From the sequence record KX231828.1: a DNA stretch of 41,918 bases, one strand, 5' to 3'. Below, piece after piece: positions 9,585 through 31,116 of this stretch (its first letter is position 1; each line of letters begins with the position of its first letter). Source of the stretch: Enterobacter phage Arya. The position numbers were made by a program, and so were the translations under genes. The notes under the pieces were generated by a model. The model worked only from the letters and a program-made list of their open reading frames with translations. It was not told the DNA's origin and ran no database searches.

Positions 9585-9923
9585 ATGAACGGAACAGACG
9601 CGACCACCGGAAAACCGCTGGATGGGCTGGCCCATTTGCAGCAATCAATAAAAGACATTCTGACCACGCCGATTGGTTCGCGTGTGATGCGGCGCGACTA
9701 TGGCAGCCGCCTGCCCCGCCTGATTGACGCACCAATGAACCGGGCCACGCTGATTGACCTGTACGCGGCCACAGCCGAAGCACTGGCCACCTGGGAACCG
9801 CGTTTCAGCGTTCAGCAGGTTGTTGCCGTATCAGCCGCACCAGGGCGCGTGGAATTGGAGGTTACAGGCGAATATCTGCCTGATGGCCAACAGGTAACGA
9901 TTGATGGAATAGTGGTGACATAA
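9585..9923 (+). CDS. baseplate protein W (P2 gpW / T4 gp25-like)
   Basis: A 112-aa ORF: LAHLQQSIKDILTTPIGSRVMRRDYGSRLPRLIDAPMN is the GPW/gp25 signature. Confidence 0.85.
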   Translation: MNGTDATTGKPLDGLAHLQQSIKDILTTPIGSRVMRRDYGSRLPRLIDAPMNRATLIDLYAATAEALATWEPRFSVQQVVAVSAAPGRVELEVTGEYLPDGQQVTIDGIVVT

Positions 9924-11413: not shown

Positions 11414-13855
11414 GTGGAACTAAAAACATACTTTGCACAGGACAGAACAGGAAACCTGATTCCGTCAGCCACAGTGTCCATTTACCTGACCGGCACAACC
11501 ACGCTGGCAACAGGTCTGAAAAATGTTTCAGGTGGAAACCTGGCTAACCCATTTAGCGCCGATGCTGACGGTAAAATCCAGTTTTATGCACCTGATGGCA
11601 TCTATGATATGCAGGTTTCGCTAGGTAGCACCACTGGCGTAAAAGTAACGTTTCAATGTTTGGACGTACAACAGCAACTGACTGACGCAAATAGCGCTGC
11701 TGACCGTGCAGAAAATGCGGCGGAAAGCATTGAAGATCAGACAGCAACGATTACCGCCAACACCCGCGAACAATGGCGCAGAGCACTGGCAGACGCCGGT
11801 TTAAGCCTTGTGTCAGGAAGTTTTGAGGAAGGGGCTACGGCCACCACAACAATTGATGCTGTATGGAACCAGGAAGGCGGACAATGCTATACCTGGGGCG
11901 GAACGCTGCCAAAAACCGTTCCGGCTAATTCGACCCCTGGAAGCACAGGTGGCGTTTCTTCTGGCGCGTGGGTTAGTGTAGCTGGAGTCATCCTAAGAAG
12001 TGATCTGTTATCAGAGGTGACATCATTAGGTGATAACTTAATCACCGTGAAACAACCTATTTCTAACAGTTCAGCCAGGAAGCTACATGATTGGGTTTCT
12101 GACCATATATCAGTAACTGACATGGCTGGTGTTGTCGGTGATGGAGTAAACGACGACGCACCAGGAATTATCGCTGCTATAACGGCGCTTTCAGCGGCAA
12201 AAAAGCCCGTGGTATTTGTCCCTGGCACATACCTGATTAGCACCAGCATTACCTTTAACACCCCGGTAAAGATCCATAATGGTGCTGTTCTAAAGGCAAG
12301 AAACGGTGCTGTTATTAGGTTCAATGCTGAAATTCAAGCTGGTGAATACAAGGTTTTTGATACAAACGATGATTTCGTAAGCAATTACCTACAGGTTCCT
12401 TCTGTCAAGATTGCGATGGGGCCGGTTCGCCCGGAATGGTTTGGCGCAAGAACGGTCAGTTCTTATGCTGAATTGGCAACGTCCATTGATTGTTCTTCGG
12501 CATTCCATAAAGCCTGGCACGCCACTTGTGGTGAATTCAATGTAGAACTAACACCAGGAAGCTTCTATCAATCTGAATTTTACCATTCTTATATTCTACT
12601 GGCGGCCGGGAAATACCGCATTGATAATAATCTTAAGTTTTGGTATCGAGTAACATCACCATCAGTCATCCGATATAACAAGAACGGCGGTGGTATTGTG
12701 GGTGCTGGAATGGGTTTATCCGTTATAGTGCTAACTAACCCGGCAGATGAAAGTAACGCTGCTATGGAGTTTAGTGATATGAGCGGCGAATTGCACATGT
12801 TCAGGGACTTCAAAGTTACCTTTTACGATTTTAACGCCACTGGTGATGCTCGCTGGTTCGGTCGTACAGGCGCAGGTATTCTGTTCTCTAGTTCAGACAG
12901 TATTTACACCCTGAATCTATGGGCGGCAGGATTTAAATATTTGAAGTTGGATGGTGATGGTGTTCGACGTGGTGGCGTTGGTATTCAGTTCGAATCGCTT
13001 GTTGATCACTTTTATGGGAACCTGCTTACTGAACATTGCGTACACGGAGTGGCGTTTAGTTCTTGTGTATCAAATGGCTATAACGCAAAAGGATTTGTAA
13101 ATACTGTAGCAGACATATCGTGTGGTAATTTTATTCCGGCCTGGCCTGACCTTATTGACCAGACAGGTATTAATTTGATCGCTTTATCCGGCCTGGAAAG
13201 TAAAGCATGTCCGGCCACTCCTATTTACTTTGGTACTGCGGACAACAGAGTTAGCATCACAAATGTAAACGTTAAAGGTAACGGTGAATCTTCATCAGCC
13301 GTAGTAACATACAGGGTTATTGATTTTAACCCTGCTGGTGGCGGCGCATCAGGACTCATTCAGGGCAATGCCATGAACGTTAACTATGGTCTTATTGATG
13401 ACCGAACCACCGGTTTTGCTGGCCGTGATGGTAGACCACTACGTTTGGTTTTTAATCTGCACAATGTTGCTGGTGCATCGTCAACAGAAACGGCAGTTGC
13501 TGTTTTCAGAAATCCACTATCAAACATAGATGTAGACATGGGTATTGATGGAGCTAAATCACCTGCGTTGATCAGTAACTGTAACCATGCAAAAGCTAAC
13601 CTTAACCTGAATAATATTTCTGGTTATACTCAAGCGCCTTATGCGGCATTCATCTGCGGAGCAGGTAAATTATTAATTCAATCCTTGAAAGTAAATGCCA
13701 CCACTAATGCGACATATCTTGGATATGCTGGCGGTTCAGCGCAGGTAATTCTTCCAGCGGCAATGGATGTTGATATCGCACCAGTCAGAAAAGGTTCTGG
13801 TTCAACAGCTGATATCAGGCAAGTATCCTCAGCTACTTATAGCACCATTCAGTAA
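11414..13855 (+). CDS. tailspike/tail fibre with pectate-lyase-like right-handed beta-helix (putative polysaccharide depolymerase)
   Basis: An 813-aa ORF: SVTDMAGVVGDGVNDDAPGIIAAITALSAAKKPVVFVPGTYLI matches the Pectate_lyase_3/tailspike beta-helix signature (GDGxxDDxxAIQAAI). GTG start. A terminator follows at about 13861-13888. Confidence 0.7.
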   Translation: MELKTYFAQDRTGNLIPSATVSIYLTGTTTLATGLKNVSGGNLANPFSADADGKIQFYAPDGIYDMQVSLGSTTGVKVTFQCLDVQQQLTDANSAADRAENAAESIEDQTATITANTREQWRRALADAGLSLVSGSFEEGATATTTIDAVWNQEGGQCYTWGGTLPKTVPANSTPGSTGGVSSGAWVSVAGVILRSDLLSEVTSLGDNLITVKQPISNSSARKLHDWVSDHISVTDMAGVVGDGVNDDAPGIIAAITALSAAKKPVVFVPGTYLISTSITFNTPVKIHNGAVLKARNGAVIRFNAEIQAGEYKVFDTNDDFVSNYLQVPSVKIAMGPVRPEWFGARTVSSYAELATSIDCSSAFHKAWHATCGEFNVELTPGSFYQSEFYHSYILLAAGKYRIDNNLKFWYRVTSPSVIRYNKNGGGIVGAGMGLSVIVLTNPADESNAAMEFSDMSGELHMFRDFKVTFYDFNATGDARWFGRTGAGILFSSSDSIYTLNLWAAGFKYLKLDGDGVRRGGVGIQFESLVDHFYGNLLTEHCVHGVAFSSCVSNGYNAKGFVNTVADISCGNFIPAWPDLIDQTGINLIALSGLESKACPATPIYFGTADNRVSITNVNVKGNGESSSAVVTYRVIDFNPAGGGASGLIQGNAMNVNYGLIDDRTTGFAGRDGRPLRLVFNLHNVAGASSTETAVAVFRNPLSNIDVDMGIDGAKSPALISNCNHAKANLNLNNISGYTQAPYAAFICGAGKLLIQSLKVNATTNATYLGYAGGSAQVILPAAMDVDIAPVRKGSGSTADIRQVSSATYSTIQ

Positions 13856-13860
13856 GTGTC

Positions 13861-13888
13861 GAACCCCGCTACGGCGGGGTATTATTTA
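13861..13888 (+). terminator. rho-independent terminator after the tailspike gene
   Basis: GAACCCCGCTACGGCGGGGTATTATTT. Confidence 0.55.
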
Positions 13889-13913
13889 AATCATTGATAA
13901 TCGTAGGCGAAAA

Positions 13914-15284
13914 ATGGCATTCATTACGATACATACAAATTACGGTTTGCAATCGCTAGCGAGAGCAGAATCCACAGGCGTACCTATCAATCTGACTCAT
14001 ATGGCTGTAGGTGATGGAAACGGTAACGCGGTAACGCCGAACCCTTCACAAACAACACTTGTGCGAGAGCAGTTCAGAGCCACCATCAATCGCGTGTATC
14101 AGTCAGCGGATGACCCGCTGCGCTTCACTGCTGAACTGGTTATACCAGCAAGCACTGGCGGTTTCACGTTGCGGGAAGTTGGCGTGTTTGATGCCGATGG
14201 TTCGCTGTTCGCCGTTGGTAATCTTCCAGACACTTACAAGCCTGTTGATACAGAAGGTGCCTACTCTGACACAGTTGTGCGACTTGATTTCATGGTGAGC
14301 AACGCCAGCACCATTACTTTGCAGGTTGATCCAAATGTTGTTGTTGTTACGCAACAATGGATTTCAAACAACGTGACGGCTGGAACAATAATTCCAGGCG
14401 GAACCACCGGGCAGGTTCTTGCCAAACAATCAAACACTGATGGTGACGTGCATTGGGTTGACCCAACACAGGCAAACGTTGTGGTTGACACCATAACCGA
14501 AAAACAAACCCTGGCAGCAAGCCAGACAGTTGTCATGCTAACTGAAACCATCACGCGCGGATTGGCTGTATATATCGAAGGCATCAGATTGCCGCAAGGT
14601 TCTGGCGTTGATGAGTGGCAGCCTGATGCGACCGACCCGGAGAAATTCACACTTGGGAAATCTTATCCTGATGGTTCTATTTTGCAGGCAGTGAATAACG
14701 AACCAGCAGGAAGCGCACCGGCACCGCTGGAACGCAGCAAAAACCTGTCAGACGTAGCAGATAAATCAACTTCACGCACAAATCTTGATGTTTTTAGCAA
14801 ATCGGAAACGCGACAGATGGCACCTGCTGGCCTGGTGGCTAGTTTTGCCAGAAGTTCAGCGCCAACAGGATGGATGAAAGCTAATGGTGCGGCAGTCAGC
14901 CGAACCGCTTACGCTGACCTGTTCGCAGCGATCGGCACCACGTTTGGAGCAGGGGATGGGCTTACCACTTTTAACCTGCCAGATCTACGCGGTGAATTTG
15001 TTCGCTACCTGGATGACGGCAGAGGCGTTGACTCAGGCCGCGCGCTTGGTTCTGCGCAATCTCACGCGCTGCAAAATATCACAGGCAAGGTTGTTGATGC
15101 CCGTTTCAACGCGAATAAATCCGCATCAGGTGCTTTCACACTAACAACCATTGGCCCTGCTGATAACGTGTCTACTGGACCAGGCAGCGCCTGCACTGTG
15201 AATTTTGACGCATCACGTGTGGCGAACACCGCCACGGAAACCAGGCCGCGAAACGTTGCCCTGTTGGCTTGCATTAAATTCTAA
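13914..15284 (+). CDS. tail fibre protein, P2 gpH-like N-terminus with C-terminal phage tail-collar domain
   Basis: The N-terminus HMAVGDGNGNAVTPNPSQTTLVREQF...FTAELVIPASTGGFTLREVGVFDADGSLFAVGNLPDTYKP matches the P2 H baseplate-attachment domain (MAVGDGGGKLPVP...IIAELVIPPEVGGFWMRELGLYDDAGTLIAV). The C-terminus TAYADLFAAIGTTFGAGDGLTTFNLPDLRGEFVR is a tail-collar motif. Confidence 0.85.
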   Translation: MAFITIHTNYGLQSLARAESTGVPINLTHMAVGDGNGNAVTPNPSQTTLVREQFRATINRVYQSADDPLRFTAELVIPASTGGFTLREVGVFDADGSLFAVGNLPDTYKPVDTEGAYSDTVVRLDFMVSNASTITLQVDPNVVVVTQQWISNNVTAGTIIPGGTTGQVLAKQSNTDGDVHWVDPTQANVVVDTITEKQTLAASQTVVMLTETITRGLAVYIEGIRLPQGSGVDEWQPDATDPEKFTLGKSYPDGSILQAVNNEPAGSAPAPLERSKNLSDVADKSTSRTNLDVFSKSETRQMAPAGLVASFARSSAPTGWMKANGAAVSRTAYADLFAAIGTTFGAGDGLTTFNLPDLRGEFVRYLDDGRGVDSGRALGSAQSHALQNITGKVVDARFNANKSASGAFTLTTIGPADNVSTGPGSACTVNFDASRVANTATETRPRNVALLACIKF

Positions 15285-18932: not shown

Positions 18933-21006
18933 GCAGTTAAACGCAACGATCACCATTGGCGGTGCCGTATCTGGCAGCCTGAAATCCGCTTTCGGCACCG
19001 TCAACAAGTCACTGCAACAGGTTGGCAGCACCATTACCAACCTGGAAAAACAGAACAAACTACTTGCAAACTCAATCCAGACGTTTGGCCGCCAGGGCAA
19101 AAACGTTGATTCTATGCGCGCGAAGTACGCCGCAAACACAGCAGCCATCGACAAACTGCGCACGGCGCAAGAACGCCTGAACCGCGTTGAGGCTGCGCGT
19201 GATCGCAACATGGCGAAGCGTGACGCTTACAAATCGGGCATTCTTGAAACGGTGGCCCTGGGTGCCACTGTGGTTGCGCCGGTCAAAGCCGCGATGGATT
19301 TTGAATCCACAATGGCCGACATCCGCAAGGTGGTGGACTTCCCTGAACCTGATGGCCTGCAAAAGATGGGCCAAACCATTCTTGATATGTCACGCCGGTT
19401 GCCGATGACCGCCAACGACATTGGCAAGATCGTTGCCGCTGGTGGTCAGTCAGGCATTGCCACCAAAGAACTGACCGCGTTTGCTGAATCCGCCATCAAA
19501 ATGGGTGTGGCGTTCGATATCACGGCAGACGAGGCAGGGCAGGCAATGGCCGAAATGCGCGCCGCGTTCCGCATGACGCAGCCGCAAGTCAACGCGCTGG
19601 CTGACAAAATCAACTACCTGGGCAACAACACTGCCGCATCAGCCAAAGACATTATGGAGATCGTGCAGCGCATCGGGCCGCTTGGTGAAGTGGCTGGCGC
19701 TGCGTCAGGTTCGATTGCAGCTATGGGCGCGACACTGCGCGGCATGGGTATTGGCAACGAGATTGCCGCGACCGGTATCAAGAACCTGTTGCTGAACCTG
19801 TCAGCCGGTAAGGCCGCCACAAAAGCACAGGTGGCAGTGTTTAAACAGCTTGGCTACACATCCAGCCAGGTTGCCAAATCCATGCAGTTGAACGCTGACG
19901 AAACGATCCGCGTCATCCTGACGAAGATTGCAAAACTGCCGAAGCACGCGCAGGCCGCAGCATTAACGCAACTGTTCGGCAAAGAGGTGGTTGGTTCAAT
20001 CGCGCCGCTGCTGACGAACCTGGACCAGTTGCAAGAAAACCTGAAACTGGTTGGCGACCAAACCAAATACGCGGGTTCGATGGAAAAAGAATATCAGGCG
20101 CGCGCGGCGACAACCGCCAACAGCCTGATAATTTTCCGCAACCAGGTGAATGCCCTTGGCGTCACGATTGGTTCCGTGCTGCTGCCAGCCGTCAACAGCC
20201 TGCTGATGACCGTGGGGCCGTGGGTTGGCCAGGTGACCGAACTGGCGCAGAAATACCCGACCGTGACGAAAGCCGTGATTGCGACCGTTGGCGCACTGGT
20301 GGCCATGAAGGTTGCGACGTTCGCGCTTGGGTTCGCGTTCACGTACCTGCGCGGTGGAATGCTGAACATCGTTGGCCTGTTCTACCGCACCGCAGCCGGT
20401 GCCGCGCTGGTTGGCACCACCACCACAACGGCAGCCGCTGGCCCTACCCTGTTGGGCCGTGCGTTCCTGTTCCTGGGCCGTGGCATCCTGTGGGCTGGCC
20501 GTATGCTGCTGCTGAACCCTATTGGCCTGGCAGTGACCACCATAGCTGGTGCCGCGTACCTGATTTATAAGAATTGGGAACCGCTGAAAGCGTGGTTTAA
20601 GGGGCTGTGGGAGGACATCACCCGGATTTTTGACGAGTCCATTGGAAAAATCATGGGCATGATAAACGGCATTAAGCAGAAGTGGACAGACTTCAAATCA
20701 TCCGTTTCTGACGGCGTTGGCGGTGCCTGGCAGAGTACGAAAGACTTTTTCAGCAACCCGTTTGGCACTGATGACAACACCGGCAAACCGGCTGCCGCTG
20801 CACCAGGCATGACGCCACCGGCAGCACCACAGATGGCCAACCGTTCTGGTGGAACCTACCAGGACAACAGCCAGAACACTTACCAGATTGTGCAGCGTCC
20901 TGGCGAGAGCAACGCCGACCTGGCCAAACGCATTGCCGCCGAACATGAACGGCAGCGCGGTGTTCGCCAGCGCAGCATGATGACTGACGGAGTAGTGACA
21001 CCATGA
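18919..21006 (+). CDS. tail tape measure protein
   Basis: A 695-aa ORF with a coiled-coil-rich N-terminus, a hydrophobic G/A-rich central segment and the TMP position after E/E'. Confidence 0.85.
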   Translation: MASNKQLNATITIGGAVSGSLKSAFGTVNKSLQQVGSTITNLEKQNKLLANSIQTFGRQGKNVDSMRAKYAANTAAIDKLRTAQERLNRVEAARDRNMAKRDAYKSGILETVALGATVVAPVKAAMDFESTMADIRKVVDFPEPDGLQKMGQTILDMSRRLPMTANDIGKIVAAGGQSGIATKELTAFAESAIKMGVAFDITADEAGQAMAEMRAAFRMTQPQVNALADKINYLGNNTAASAKDIMEIVQRIGPLGEVAGAASGSIAAMGATLRGMGIGNEIAATGIKNLLLNLSAGKAATKAQVAVFKQLGYTSSQVAKSMQLNADETIRVILTKIAKLPKHAQAAALTQLFGKEVVGSIAPLLTNLDQLQENLKLVGDQTKYAGSMEKEYQARAATTANSLIIFRNQVNALGVTIGSVLLPAVNSLLMTVGPWVGQVTELAQKYPTVTKAVIATVGALVAMKVATFALGFAFTYLRGGMLNIVGLFYRTAAGAALVGTTTTTAAAGPTLLGRAFLFLGRGILWAGRMLLLNPIGLAVTTIAGAAYLIYKNWEPLKAWFKGLWEDITRIFDESIGKIMGMINGIKQKWTDFKSSVSDGVGGAWQSTKDFFSNPFGTDDNTGKPAAAAPGMTPPAAPQMANRSGGTYQDNSQNTYQIVQRPGESNADLAKRIAAEHERQRGVRQRSMMTDGVVTP

Positions 21007-23553: not shown

Positions 23554-23635
23554 TTGTCCGTGGTTCTGACCTGCCCACGGTTATTGCGTGGGCATCATTG
23601 ATTATCATCGCAATTGTATTGGGATCTTTTTAATT

Positions 23636-24400
23636 ATGACTATTCGCAAACTGTATGACGCCAAAAAGCTGAACGCCAAACGCAATGGCGGCGCATGGTT
23701 CGTTCCATTCGCTGATTTGTACATGGAACCCGGCTACAACATCCGTGACGGTGAGATCAACGCGGAGAAGGTGCAGGCGTTCGCTGATGCCTACACCGCT
23801 GGTGAATACGTGCCAGCCATCACCGTTGACGTGACTGAACAAGGGCTGCGCGTGAACGATGGCCAGCACCGCTATTTAGGCGCGAAACTGGCCATTGAAA
23901 ACGGACTGGCATCGGTCCTGCTGGAAGTGGTTGACGTTACCGGCATTGAAACCGGCAAGAAGATTGCCCGCATGGTCAACGCCAATGACGGCACGCCAAC
24001 GTCACCTATTGCCCGCGCCAATGCCTATGCCCGCATGAAGGCGGAAGGCATGACCAATGACCAGATCGCCAAAGAGGTTCACCGCAGCCCGTCAGACGTG
24101 GCCAATTTCCTGGCCCTGGCTGCCTGCCCTGACGATATCAAAGCGATGGTGAGCGCTGGCCAGATGTCCTACGTGATGGCCATTGAAATGACCAAAGAGC
24201 ATGGCGACGACGCGCCAGCCGTGGCAGCCGAAGCGCTGGAAAAGGCCAAAGCCGCTGGCAAAGAGAAGGTGACGAAGAAGTTTACGGCACCGGCAGAGCC
24301 GAAGGAACCGAAGGAACCGGCTGAACCGGCAGCAACGGCACCGAAAGCGCCGAAGGCCAAACCGGAAGCCTTACAGCCGCCGTTCGGCAAAGCCAACTGA
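23636..24400 (+). CDS. ParB-like protein: N-terminal ParB/Srx-type DGQHR domain, central ParB HTH, C-terminal K/P/E-rich tail
   Basis: VNDGQHRYLGAKLA is a DGQHR motif (ParB N-terminal/DndB-like class). MTNDQIAKEVHRSPSDVANFLALAACPDDIKAMVSAGQMSYVMAIEMTK resembles the ParB HTH plus its following helix. The track ORF starts at 23588; the ATG at 23636 with RBS is more likely. Confidence 0.65.
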   Translation: MTIRKLYDAKKLNAKRNGGAWFVPFADLYMEPGYNIRDGEINAEKVQAFADAYTAGEYVPAITVDVTEQGLRVNDGQHRYLGAKLAIENGLASVLLEVVDVTGIETGKKIARMVNANDGTPTSPIARANAYARMKAEGMTNDQIAKEVHRSPSDVANFLALAACPDDIKAMVSAGQMSYVMAIEMTKEHGDDAPAVAAEALEKAKAAGKEKVTKKFTAPAEPKEPKEPAEPAATAPKAPKAKPEALQPPFGKAN

Positions 24401-24845: not shown

Positions 24846-25072
24846 TTCGTTATGTTATTCACCCCGGCTACGTGTTCAGCAAGAATGATGGTCAGCGCCA
24901 CTACATCAATGGCCATCAACTGATACGGCTTTACGGCTTGAATCCTGCCGAATGCGTCATAGCCAGTGAGCAAAACGGCTGGTGCGCGCCTGCCGGGTGC
25001 ATCCACCTGCGCCCGCGCAGTTCCGGCAACTATAAAATATCACCGTATCATAACCTCGCCGGTGAGGCGTAA
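24842..25072 (+). CDS. hypothetical protein
   Basis: A 76-aa ORF with its start overlapping the upstream stop. Confidence 0.45.
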   Translation: MIRYVIHPGYVFSKNDGQRHYINGHQLIRLYGLNPAECVIASEQNGWCAPAGCIHLRPRSSGNYKISPYHNLAGEA

Positions 25073-25081
25073 GGGGTAAGA

Positions 25082-25237
25082 GTGACTAACGAGAATTTCA
25101 GCTTTGAAGAGTGGTTTGATTTCCTGCGTGACCATGCGCGTAAGCAAGGCGGCGCGGCCAACTTTGCTGACGAATGGCAGGAAGATTATGACAACGGACT
25201 GACGCCAGAAGAAGCCTGGCGCAACGCCTGGGAATGA
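25082..25237 (+). CDS. small hypothetical protein (51 aa, GTG start)
   Basis: An AAGGGG RBS lies 6 nt upstream. The ORF ends just before a strong terminator. Confidence 0.35.
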   Translation: MTNENFSFEEWFDFLRDHARKQGGAANFADEWQEDYDNGLTPEEAWRNAWE

Positions 25238-25242
25238 CACAC

Positions 25243-25271
25243 AGCCCGCCACTTCGGCGGGCTTTTTGTTG
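25243..25271 (+). terminator. rho-independent terminator
   Basis: CAGCCCGCCACTTCGGCGGGCTTTTTGTT, abutting the 3' end of the tRNA gene. Confidence 0.75.
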
Positions 25272-25272
25272 G

Positions 25273-25349
25273 TGGCGACCCCACCAGGAATCGAACCTGG
25301 AACCTACAGCTTAGAAGGCTGTCGCTCTATCCGGTTGAGCTATGGGGCC
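25273..25349 (-). tRNA. tRNA-Arg (anticodon UCU, decodes AGA/AGG), CCA encoded
   Basis: Manual fold of the reverse complement gives acceptor GGCCCCA/TGGGGTC, D-arm GCTC-AACCGGATA-GAGC, anticodon arm ACAGC-CTTCTAA-GCTGT (U33, anticodon TCT, A37), variable AGGTT, T-arm CCAGG-TTCGATT-CCTGG, discriminator G, and CCA. Confidence 0.85.
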
Positions 25350-25461
25350 GTGTAATTATGTGGCGTGATTCAGCGTGTAGCCTGTTGCGTGGTACACCCC
25401 AAAGTACACCCTAACCTGTTTTGAAATTCGTATAACCTACTGTAAACACTCACTAATTTAA

Positions 25462-25692
25462 TCTGTTGCCAACCGCTTAGAAGGCATCAACCCGTTCACC
25501 CCGCGTGACCTGCGCCGAACCTGGAAAAGCCGCGCCGGTGACGCTGGCATTGACCGGTTCATGCGTGACATCATCCAGCAGCACGCGCAGACCGATACCG
25601 GCAGCAAACACTATGACCGGTTCGACTACCTTCCGCAGATGCGTGAAGCGATGAATAAATGGGAAACATGGTTGCAGAATGCTATAGCGTGA
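25462..25692 (+). pseudogene. 3' remnant (76 codons) of a tyrosine integrase gene
   Basis: ...NPFTPRDLRRTWKSRAGDAGIDRFMRDIIQQHAQTDTGSKHYDRFDYLPQMREAMNKWETWLQNAIA* matches the conserved C-terminus of P4/phage-type integrases (HDLRRT box and catalytic Y region). The frame is closed by TAA at 25459-25461 with no N-terminal ~250 aa present. Confidence 0.65.
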
Positions 25693-25914
25693 TGTAGAGT
25701 TATTTTATGCAGACGGTGGAGACGCTCCACGCCGGAGACGTAACCGGCACGCACCGTGATGCGCTTTTGCGAAACACTTTCCCCGTCTGGTGTTACCTCG
25801 CAAATCGTGAAAGCGCATCGCAGTGCGCCAGGCGTACTGATTGGAACTTACCCGACAATGAGTTTCCATTAAGGCAGGTGATCCGTATCTCGCATCACAG
25901 CGTTAAGTGACACA

Positions 25915-25942
25915 AAACCCCGCTTCGGCGGGGTTTTTATTT
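25915..25942. terminator. bidirectional rho-independent terminator
   Basis: AAAACCCCGCTTCGGCGGGGTTTTTATTT has an A-run and a T-run flanking a GC stem, between convergent plus-strand and minus-strand transcription units. Confidence 0.7.
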
Positions 25943-25944
25943 GG

Positions 25945-26628
25945 TCATTCTTCGGGGCTTTCGTCATCGCCTTGCGCTTTCATCGGCCCATGTTCCGGGC
26001 AGTGCGGCGCGCCAACATCCAGCCACTTTTGCGTAACGCGCACCGTGTAGCCGCATTCCTCGCATTCGCATTTTTTCAGCCTGGTTGACTGTTTCGGTTT
26101 TGCCGTGGACGCACCGCCGACCGGTGCCACTTCAATTTCTTCGCCTTCATCGTCATCGCCTGATTCATCCATGCCAATGCGCAGGCGCGGCACCTTAATG
26201 GACATCCCACGATCAAACGTCAGTTTGGCGTGAGGCATCGGCCCCAATTCATCCGGGAACGGTTTCACGTACTCTTTGAACGCTTCACCAGGCGTGGTGG
26301 CGGTCATCGGTCCATTCAGGCCAACAGCCTTGCAGACCTTCGCAAACGCACCCTTGTGGCCGCAGTCAAAGCCAACAGCGGCGTGTGTCAGTTCGTGCCA
26401 CAGGTGGTTTGCAACCATGAACGGTTCAACCTGGTCAGGCATGATGAATATTTCAAACGTGTTGTCACTGGAACACTTGCTATGCCAGCAATGTGCTGCC
26501 GTACTGGAACGCGCACCGCTGCTGCAAAAGCCAACTGACACGCGGAATTTAGGCAGTTCATAACCGAATTCTTTGAAACGTGGCGCGAACTTCGCAGCCA
26601 GAGCATTCAACCAACCTTCACGATCCAT
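25945..26628 (-). CDS. SprT-like zinc metalloprotease domain protein with C-terminal zinc ribbon
   Basis: It carries HELTH (HExxH) in WHELTHAAVGFDCGHKG and C-terminal CECEECGYTVRVTQ...HCPEHG. The leader TTACCTCGCAATT is shared with the recE-like gene. Confidence 0.65.
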   Translation of the reverse strand: MDREGWLNALAAKFAPRFKEFGYELPKFRVSVGFCSSGARSSTAAHCWHSKCSSDNTFEIFIMPDQVEPFMVANHLWHELTHAAVGFDCGHKGAFAKVCKAVGLNGPMTATTPGEAFKEYVKPFPDELGPMPHAKLTFDRGMSIKVPRLRIGMDESGDDDEGEEIEVAPVGGASTAKPKQSTRLKKCECEECGYTVRVTQKWLDVGAPHCPEHGPMKAQGDDESPEE

Positions 26629-30573: not shown

Positions 30574-31116
30574 TCAAATCTTTCTGTGGTGGCCTATTAC
30601 TTTGCCGATTACTTCCAGGCGTTCATCTGCCCAAGTAAAATCGACCTTATAAAGCGGATTATCGCAAGTAAGCCTAATCCCGCCTTCCAGATTGCGATGA
30701 CCGCGAACCAGGCGAGCTTCACCGTTCAAAATGATGGCGTAAACGCCAGCGTTGTCGATCCATGTAATCGACTTATCAATAAAGCAGTGGTCACCCTGCG
30801 CGAACGTGGGGGCCATCATATCGGTGGCGACAACTACCAGGCTGATGCGTTCCGCTGGAATGTCATAGAACTGCGCCAGGCCAGCCAGCGCGGATTCATT
30901 CAGGTCAGCACTGTTCGTTAGTGGCAGCGACCGCGCCAGCAGTTCTTCTTTGCTGCACCCAATAGCGGCGGCCAGCTTATCGAGAATTACCAGCGTCACC
31001 CGTTGTGGTTCGCGCTCCCACCGGCTGACCGTCACGGCGGTGGTTTTTAGTTTTTCAGCCACGTCCTGCAACGTAAGCCCGGCTGCCTGGCGGCGCTCTC
31101 TGATGCGGTTTGGCAT
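30574..31116 (-). CDS. CI-like repressor: N-terminal XRE-type HTH + C-terminal LexA/S24-like domain apparently lacking the catalytic Ser
   Basis: The HTH region is LTLQDVAEKLKTTAVTVSRWER. The C-terminal domain aligns with lambda cI/LexA S24, with the Lys motif EVIGKVIG present, but the G-D-S-M nucleophile motif reads T-D-M-M (VVVATDMMAPTFAQGDHCFID against VxGDSMxPxhxxGDxhhVD). Confidence 0.8.
   Translation of the reverse strand: MPNRIRERRQAAGLTLQDVAEKLKTTAVTVSRWEREPQRVTLVILDKLAAAIGCSKEELLARSLPLTNSADLNESALAGLAQFYDIPAERISLVVVATDMMAPTFAQGDHCFIDKSITWIDNAGVYAIILNGEARLVRGHRNLEGGIRLTCDNPLYKVDFTWADERLEVIGKVIGHHRKI

Follow-up and report, generated by a model that had tools for sequence, protein, structure and literature searches.

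Enterobacter phage Arya (GenBank KX231828) was described by Tikhe et al. (2018, Genome Announc) as a lytic phage with clear plaques and a circularly permuted genome of 41,918 bp and 54% GC, syntenic with the phages ECO1230-10, ep3 and PPpW-3 (PMC5754474). The same paper reports a single arginine tRNA and, adjoining it, the 43-aa product of "a predicted integrase pseudogene", and the words "integrase pseudogene" also stand in its title. A repressor gene is said there to be absent, and the integrase of PPpW-3 is labelled a pseudogene (PMC5754474). Here we analyse this locus, at which a gene for tRNA-Arg(UCU) lies beside the 3′ remnant of a tyrosine integrase gene. The window, by which we mean the whole stretch of DNA that was analysed (KX231828.1), has 41,918 bp and 54.1% GC. 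These values, its single tRNA-Arg, a 43-aa integrase ORF and its synteny all agree with the published description, and we identify it as this genome in full.

Decay of integrase and repressor genes across the genus Jilinvirus, subfamily Iiscvirinae, has been described in the paper on the BASEL collection (PLoS Biol 2025, PMC11990801). In the sections of that paper that deal with these phages, the integrase and repressor of several Jilinvirus phages are called "deteriorated or absent", temperate behaviour is stated never to have been observed in the Jilinvirus-like group, and HeidiAbel (Bas97) is reported to form clear plaques despite its intact module (PMC11990801). The integrase pseudogene beside tRNA-Arg in Arya, and since 2025 the decay of the lysogeny module at the level of the group, are already published. 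What we add to the literature is modest, and consists of the anatomy of the phage attachment site (attP), a nucleotide-level map of the deletion, and the finding that the ends of independent deletions cluster at loops of anticodon type. The attP site and the deletion endpoints are not described in the Arya genome paper (PMC5754474), and neither the attP anatomy nor attachment site (att)-anchored deletion ends are mentioned in the text on the locus in the BASEL paper (PMC11990801).

Comparison of the two halves of the window with KA2-1, ECOO78, ep3, Alux-21, ECO1230-10, HeidiAbel_Bas97, PT1 and MQ-4 gave 78–84% nucleotide identity over 37–80% of each half. The phages related to the window fall within or next to the genus Jilinvirus, subfamily Iiscvirinae, and are small enterobacterial myoviruses of ~41–44 kb; gene by gene, HeidiAbel and the window are completely syntenic, and synteny is likewise full with KA2-1, ECOO78, ep3, Alux-21, ECO1230-10 and PT1. 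Arya is a small lytic myovirus related to this genus. With the HeidiAbel locus, as it is presented in the BASEL paper, it has in common the gene order tRNA-Arg, integrase, leftward early genes and cI-like repressor. In Arya, the integrase is destroyed and the repressor is full-length, a pairing that is not singled out in that paper's account of the locus (PMC11990801).

The integrase remnant of Arya and the segment that is missing

The frame of the remnant is bounded upstream by a TAA stop at 25459–25461, runs through 76 open codons (25462–25689) and closes with a stop at 25690–25692. It begins 112 bp from the 5′ end of the tRNA gene. The gap, the length of the frame and the upstream stop are exactly as noted in the original prediction, an earlier reading of the same letters, and were seen again in the translated open reading frames (ORFs). 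When the 403-aa integrase of HeidiAbel was compared to the window by tblastn, a single match was obtained (25468–25689), corresponding to residues 330–403 with 89% identity over 74 aa. Against the PHROGs, the remnant matches the integrase family phrog_1 (E=4e-7), and inspection of its translation reveals an 'RDLRRT' box, a 'QQH' motif and a C-terminal 'KHY', the tyrosine of which we take to be the catalytic one. A Pfam scan of the remnant returned no domain, with neither PF00589 nor the arm-binding PF13356 detected. As the remnant spans residues 330–403 only, the N-terminal arm-type DNA-binding domain (PF13356) is absent from it, as is the complete R-K-H-R-H/W-Y catalytic set, whose upstream residues fall in the 329 deleted codons. 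Its homology to the integrase family is therefore that of a gene fragment and not of a family member able to function. We regard this stub as a pseudogene, in which neither of the two DNA-binding domains is left, nor the N-terminal portion of the catalytic domain. No other integrase or recombinase was found by tblastn of the window or by a Pfam scan of those ORFs that have no HeidiAbel counterpart, which bears out the earlier statement that there is no intact integrase anywhere in the genome.

The state of the same position in related phages shows what has been lost. At exactly the position of the Arya locus, HeidiAbel, Alux-21, MQ-4 and PT1 have the tRNA and, next to it, an integrase of 403 aa, flanked by the ParB-like gene cluster on one side and by the leftward genes for a SprT-like protein and a single-stranded DNA-binding protein on the other. 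The integrases of the intact relatives carry both PF13356 and PF00589. In KA2-1, the integrase found there measures 413 aa and a full tRNA is lacking, and full-length homologues were detected by tblastn in the more distant phages PPpW-3, Persinger, Mica, phiRSP and Mano. The integrase is syntenic in every branch of the subfamily, namely in enterobacterial, Pseudomonas, Burkholderia, Ralstonia and Achromobacter phages. Because full-length homologues are syntenic in such distant members, we consider the integrase module to be ancestral. The PPpW-3 integrase (AB775548.1, 21439–22644), which is called a pseudogene in the Arya genome paper, aligns here in one piece to HeidiAbel residues 1–402, with 74% identity (tblastn).

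The closest reference for Arya at this position is L070, a metagenomic sequence (sample SRR12008662) with an intact integrase gene. By blastn, window positions 25233–25485 correspond to L070 1662–1913, and positions 25483–25674 to L070 3070–3261, the two matches overlapping by only 3 nt (GGC). The missing segment amounts to 1,159 bp compared to L070 and 1,173 bp compared to HeidiAbel, as determined from blastn and pairwise alignments. The junction joins ...CCGCTTAGAAGGC to ATCAACCCGTTC..., and lies at the border of loop and stem in the attP core. Lost in Arya are the right half-core, the right arm repeats, the upstream (promoter) region of the integrase gene, and codons 1 to ~329. A 22-nt overlap of attP and integrase sequence at the junction, seen in comparison with HeidiAbel, was at one point a candidate for extended homology, but it shrinks to 3 nt with the closer L070-type reference and was discarded.

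We propose that the ancestors of Arya carried a lysogeny module ordered as tRNA-Arg(UCU) on the minus strand, attP, and, on the plus strand, a 403-aa tyrosine integrase of P4 type that has a domain for arm-DNA binding at its N-terminus. A single deletion of ~1.16 kb, reaching from the attP core into integrase codon ~329, then left the intact tRNA, the left half of attP and the 76-codon stub. With its module destroyed, Arya would for that reason be unable to integrate, and it grows lytically, as published (PMC5754474). We assign a probability of roughly 0.85 to this reading, in which one attP-anchored deletion broke the lysogeny module, with the stub a pseudogene and the phage lytic. Deletion of the integrase was one of the options put forward in the original prediction, and it proved right: relatives keep the 403-aa protein, and the alignment to intact integrases that had been suggested there places the deletion endpoint at 25483–25486. 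The option of a cryptic prophage, with the window only a part of it, is rejected, as the isolate is lytic and forms plaques, and the window holds the whole of its circularly permuted genome (PMC5754474).

The 76-codon ORF, or the 43-codon ORF that opens at the first ATG of its frame, might alternatively be a small gene that has been retained for an independent role. Wherever integrase sequence survives in relatives that lack the integrase, no less than the last ~23 codons are present, and the remnant matches phrog_17497, a family of unknown function, slightly better than it matches phrog_1. The retained length nevertheless varies by lineage (76 versus ~23 codons), and one contig, L072, has no remnant at all. 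A simple scan found no sigma-70-like or other promoter-like site in 25000–26100, and the lack of a Pfam domain likewise speaks against a separate function. A search with the 75-aa remnant against 5.8 billion proteins gave just 8 short matches, all on contigs of ≤2.1 kb; at least some of these may be genes truncated at contig ends, and the matches say nothing about independent conservation of the remnant. Taken together, we judge a small gene with its own role to be highly improbable, and the stub is better read as what the deletion left behind.

Some further observations concern the surroundings of the integrase gene. In HeidiAbel, the small gene Bas97_0031 sits directly downstream of it, and the homologue in the window is split by a frameshift. 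In the relatives L068 (reverse complement, 2590–2664) and L069 (reverse complement, 880–954), a tRNA-Met(CAU) has been added downstream of the integrase gene, before the SprT-like gene is reached; variable inserts are thus accommodated here. L072, a contig from ERR12320419, has neither tRNA nor integrase remnant between the SprT-like and ParB-side genes, and in their stead has an AT-rich stretch of ~480 bp; it is a fourth state of the locus. A search of viral contigs with the SprT-like protein gave only two close loci, both with intact integrase, although a protein search indicates more than 100 members for this gene. A 17-nt DNA pattern from the integrase 3′ end gave 31 matches in viral contigs, 29 of them on contigs unlinked to this phage group. 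A pattern search of genome contigs with the HeidiAbel integrase gave 57 matches, none of which was confirmed. The longer contigs with SprT-like homologues (P0227 in Burkholderia, and P0186) were set aside as unrelated mosaic prophages that are uninformative on attachment sites.

An attP-like interval between the tRNA and the integrase gene

P4-type integrases combine PF13356 with PF00589 and target the anticodon loops of tRNA genes. The intact relatives of Arya share both domains with them, as well as a tRNA-derived attP segment that ends in an anticodon stem-loop. In attP of the HeidiAbel/Arya type, however, the tRNA-like part is decayed, and a complete, separate tRNA is found 166 bp away. 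This was seen by repeat analysis of the window, in which the anticodon arm of the tRNA recurs in degenerate form at that distance from the tRNA's own: positions 25455–25485 are a 31-nt direct repeat of 25289–25319 inside the tRNA gene, with 74% identity. L070 has exactly the same left half-core as Arya, GTTGCCAACCGCTTAGAAGGC, and in HeidiAbel (L001 2827–2852) the sequence CCGC-TTAGAAG-GCGG is contained in the core.

For ten loci in which the integrase is still present, we aligned the stretch that separates the tRNA from the start of the integrase gene. The core CCGC-TTAGAAG-GCGG is conserved in all ten, while the spacers diverge and are scrambled in the divergent L070 lineage. Tandem repeats of arm type flank the core and read ACCrTACCCTAA in the HeidiAbel group and GTAcACCCyA in L070 and Arya. 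They differ among lineages and are alike on both sides of the core within a lineage (HeidiAbel type, L070), as would be expected of arm-binding sites that co-evolve with their integrase. In sequence terms, the interval looks like a classic attP, with a left arm, a core and a right arm, and we give CCGCTTAGAAGGCGG as the putative site. Arya retains only the left arm pair, the left half-core and the loop.

The core is about 170–171 bp from the integrase start codon, and the same spacing (~171–175 bp) is found in KA2-1 and in an integrated P4-like island of 9.4 kb (L011). The island sits at a tRNA-Arg(UCU) gene and encodes an integrase that is 55% identical to that of HeidiAbel. Over 16 nt, the phage core, CCGCCTTCTAAGCGGA in the tRNA sense, shows no difference from the anticodon arm of the island's tRNA, from which we infer that these integrases may recombine at the anticodon loop of a host tRNA-Arg(UCU). 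Within the island, the acceptor strand CGGGCAG of a partial tRNA adjoining the integrase gene (9783–9835) cannot pair with the 5′ half GGCCCCA of the full tRNA at the opposite end (19235–19310). In KA2-1 (L002 ~2695–2751), a well-preserved tRNA 3′ half with loop CTACGAA, T arm and CCA end stands ~175 bp upstream of the integrase gene, and looks like a canonical attP that would be aimed at a different tRNA.

The attP-like anatomy also bears on a different proposal for the locus, namely that the tRNA and the stub are the scar of a foreign integrative element, such as a P4-like satellite, that was once inserted in a phage-borne tRNA and later lost. Small P4-like islands at tRNA-Arg(UCU) do carry related integrases, and the succession of a full tRNA and a partial copy recalls attL and attR. 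What is difficult to reconcile with a scar is that the integrase occupies the same syntenic position in every subfamily branch, that no satellite genes accompany it, and that arm repeats and core co-evolve with each phage lineage. We consider such a scar very unlikely, and this suggestion of the original prediction found no support: the module is inherited throughout the subfamily, and its arm repeats change with the lineage. The tRNA may have been captured deep in the ancestry of the subfamily, in which case the capture would not be specific to Arya.

Several points weigh against our reading of a lysogeny module broken by an attP-anchored deletion. In contrast to what is known for P4-type integrases, integration has never been shown for the HeidiAbel/Arya group, and no relative has been shown to integrate in an experiment. 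The attP core matches what we take to be the sequence of E. coli argU over only ~9 nt, and in the island L011 the presence of a partial and a full tRNA does not fit a simple exchange at the anticodon loop. The ~80 integrase clusters with at least 71% identity are all on contigs of phage size, ≤44.3 kb. A megablast search of complete E. coli genomes with the tRNA-integrase region of HeidiAbel gave no match, and hence no integrated prophage from which attL and attR could be read. It may be that the module is non-functional, or is used differently, even where it is intact. In these data, integrase-positive relatives are never seen integrated. The E. coli 'prophage' cited in the BASEL paper (PMC11990801) is a stand-alone contig of 42.4 kb (GCA_012697465.1, AATBGZ010000031.1); the phage on it is an integrase-positive relative, and the contig stops within a tail gene, which rules out integration at attP.

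Deletions in related phages

In ep3 and ECO1230-10, a larger deletion extends from inside the anticodon loop of the phage tRNA to integrase codon ~382, with the loss of half of the tRNA. The ep3-type junction reads ...CAGCTTA, then an extra T, then ACTACCTGCCG..., and can also be written CAGCTTA/TACTACC. We rejected the idea that ep3 and ECO1230-10 represent independent events, as their junctions are identical, including the odd extra T. The ECOO78 junction reads ...CCTACAG/AGTGGACTACC... (CCTACAG/AGTGGAC) and lies one nucleotide before the loop. It results from a separate event, because ECOO78 retains integrase bases that the ep3 type lacks. In all three junction types, the left end is within 2 nt of a TTAGAAG loop. 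In Arya, one end of the deletion falls within the att overlap region, at GAAGGC/ATC, while in the ep3 type and ECOO78 the corresponding end is at the tRNA anticodon loop. The positions of these ends suggest that the deletions were anchored at the attachment site and were possibly made by the integrase.

There is a precedent in phage lambda, for which Parkinson and Davis reportedly described Int-promoted, att-anchored deletions in 1971, with the dependence on Int shown genetically. Those deletions likewise have one end at the att crossover region and reach into neighbouring genes, whereas for the phages studied here a role of the integrase would be deduced from the positions of three junctions only. 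What we have in mind is an aberrant site-specific recombination in which a weak secondary site within the integrase gene was joined with the attP core, or with the attB-like anticodon loop in the tRNA of the phage, and the DNA in between was excised. If deletion ends were spread evenly over the ~430 bp that are dispensable, each would have a ~5% chance of falling within 2 nt of the loop, and all three a chance of ~1e-4 by our own rough calculation. In addition, the site in the integrase gene that was used in Arya (GGATGAAGGGT in L070; CCGCATGGCAGGC in HeidiAbel) partly resembles the core, CCGCTTAGAAGGC. Set against this, there are three events only, and the pattern was noticed post hoc; the extra T in the ep3-type junction is unexplained, and the right ends show no convincing core-like dyad. 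Replication slippage at stem-loops also fits the data. The microhomologies of 2–6 nt at the junctions suit slippage equally well, and stem-loops are hotspots for slippage that need no integrase. Overall, we hold a deletion made by the integrase to be a tentative explanation with less than even odds. It refines the reading of an attP-anchored deletion in Arya and does not contradict it.

Metagenomic contigs give hints of such variation outside of cultured isolates. At the ep3-type junction, integrase sequence picks up again at ACTACCTGCC, and it is with exactly this nucleotide that the contig L071 (SRR12008666) begins; L070, from the sister sample, has the intact gene. The contigs L064–L066 break just beyond the integrase 3′ end. 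These observations suggest that the presence or absence of the integrase varies within natural populations. If the polymorphism suggested by L071 is real, reads across the junction in SRR12008666 and SRR12008662 would contain CAGCTTATACTACC.

The tRNA-Arg(UCU) gene

ARAGORN confirmed, at 25273–25349, the complete tRNA-Arg(UCU) on the minus strand that had been pointed out. It is the sole tRNA in the window (anticodon tct) and has a cloverleaf fold with an intact acceptor stem and the 3′ end GTCGCCA. Orthologues occur in HeidiAbel, Alux-21, MQ-4, PT1 and several metagenomic contigs. Base pairs change in a compensating manner among the Arya, HeidiAbel and MQ-4 genes: the acceptor stem has A-T or T-A at pair 7-66, and the T stem has C-G, A-T or G-C at pair 49-65. 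Because the orthologues show such changes, the prediction is not a chance match, and judging from them the Arya tRNA still looks functional. The best E. coli match is just 78% identical, so the gene is not a copy of an E. coli tRNA. A G+C-rich hairpin terminates the rightward gene that ends at 25237, and its position just beyond the tRNA 3′ end suggests that it also ends the tRNA transcript.

Codon counts were made with strand constraints on the ORFs. Usage of the two codons is moderate, at 3.8 AGA and 3.5 AGG per 1000 codons, and 20 of the 93 AGA/AGG codons in the genome are found in the tail-spike and tail-fibre genes (11414–15284). The tail-spike gene has no HeidiAbel counterpart, and the fibre gene has a partial match with 45% identity over part of its length, which suggests that these are horizontally exchanged host-range genes. 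Most plausibly, the tRNA helps to translate the AGA/AGG codons clustered there. The description of the gene as a typical rare-codon tRNA carried by phages thus remains plausible but weak given the moderate usage, and it is weakened further by the ep3-type phages, lytic isolates by description in spite of the loss of their tRNA.

Repressor, Xis-like and ParB-like genes

The original prediction was correct in listing a repressor, an Xis-like protein and a recombination module, all of which we recovered with Pfam, PHROGs and the comparison to HeidiAbel. Where the Arya genome paper reports no repressor, the window has a full-length cI-like ORF of 180 aa. The protein is 64% identical to that of HeidiAbel over the full length, and among the sequenced relatives homologues were found only in HeidiAbel, PT1 and MQ-4. 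A comparison with solved structures gave no match for it. At the position of the S24 nucleophile, Arya has M, HeidiAbel S, PT1 T and MQ-4 V, and the S24-like domain is probably not a working self-cleaving protease in any of the four proteins. We had considered the Ser-to-Met change as a sign of decay specific to Arya, but dismissed this, as the position varies (S, T, V, M) in integrase-positive relatives too.

The Xis-like and ParB-like genes say little about lifestyle, because counterparts are annotated in relatives that lack the integrase: ECOO78 has a gene of the same size annotated at the Xis-like position, and the ParB-like gene is present in all of the relatives examined, including those reported as lytic. 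As had been stated earlier, a ParB-like gene is present and no ParA-like match was found among the ORFs scanned. The coordinates of these genes, and of the other features of the locus, are collected in Table 1.

Table 1. Positions of the features discussed in the Arya genome (window coordinates).
Feature	Position	Strand	Basis or remarks
Tail-spike gene (Tail_spike_N and pectate-lyase-like domains)	11414–13855	+	
Tail-collar fibre gene	13914–15284	+	
ParB-like helix-turn-helix protein, without ParA partner	23588–24400	+	Pfam HTH_ParB, phrog_1033
G+C-rich hairpin followed by T run (terminator)	25243–25263		Terminator scan and inverted repeat I1; kept in HeidiAbel
tRNA-Arg(UCU), 77 nt, encoded CCA end	25273–25349	−	ARAGORN
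Left (P) arm of putative attP, tandem arm-type repeats GTACACCCCAA and GTACACCCTAA	25392–25414		Repeat family D4
Left half of putative attP core, decayed repeat of the 3′ half of the tRNA, with stem CCGC and loop TTAGAAG (25477–25483) at its end	25455–25485		Direct repeat
Integrase 3′ remnant, 76 open codons and stop	25462–25692	+	Translation, tblastn, phrog_1
Deletion junction	25483–25486		attP side ends ...GAAGGC, integrase side starts ATCAAC...; 3–4 nt microhomology (GGC or AGGC)
43-aa ATG ORF within the remnant	25561–25692	+	ORF list; size equals published pseudogene product (PMC5754474)
Frameshifted homologue of small HeidiAbel gene Bas97_0031	25708–25967	−	tblastn, two pieces in different frames
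Xis-like helix-turn-helix protein, 73 aa	27845–28066	−	Pfam HTH_17, phrog_66
cI-like repressor, full-length, 180 aa, HTH_3 and Peptidase_S24-like domains	30574–31116	−	ORF list, Pfam, PHROGs

The ParB-like gene, together with the full-length cI-like repressor, raises the idea that Arya could be temperate without integrating, as a plasmid-like prophage that makes use of the ParB-like protein. The stand-alone 42.4-kb contig in GCA_012697465.1, on which an integrase-positive relative is not integrated at attP, would agree with this, as would the fact that none of the close relatives was found on a chromosomal contig of great length. Stand-alone contigs could, however, also come from a lytic contaminant or from a culture in the carrier state. 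Neither a ParA-like match, a plasmid replication initiator nor a parS-like repeat array was found in the ORFs scanned, which are a subset, and in the comparison with HeidiAbel; of a P1- or N15-like partition system, only the ParB-like protein is present among the genes compared or scanned. The same gene is also carried by ep3, ECO1230-10 and ECOO78, which have neither integrase nor repressor, and Arya itself forms clear plaques and is described as lytic (PMC5754474). We give little credence to a plasmid-like prophage, which the original prediction had offered as an option and for which the ParB-like gene, being common to all relatives including lytic ones, provides no support.

Implications for the phage group

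The attP described here predicts the target of integration, a tRNA-Arg(UCU) gene with the anticodon arm CCGCCTTCTAAGCGG, and thereby makes integration by the intact relatives of Arya testable. Genomes that combine an integrase remnant with an intact repressor, such as that of Arya, would be those of ex-temperate phages, in which recombination with integrase-positive relatives could restore the module, a point of relevance in screening for phage therapy.

For the group as a whole, three integrase-inactivating deletions that start at anticodon-type loops point to a specific, possibly self-inflicted route from temperate to virulent phage. It is possible, though we think it rather unlikely, that the switch from a temperate type to strictly lytic growth took place repeatedly by deletions anchored at the integrase's own sites, that is, at the attP core and the attB-like tRNA anticodon loop, with the integrase destroying its own gene. 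If this were true, the stand-alone 42-kb contigs and the breaks in L071 and L064–L066 would reflect the same polymorphism in natural populations.

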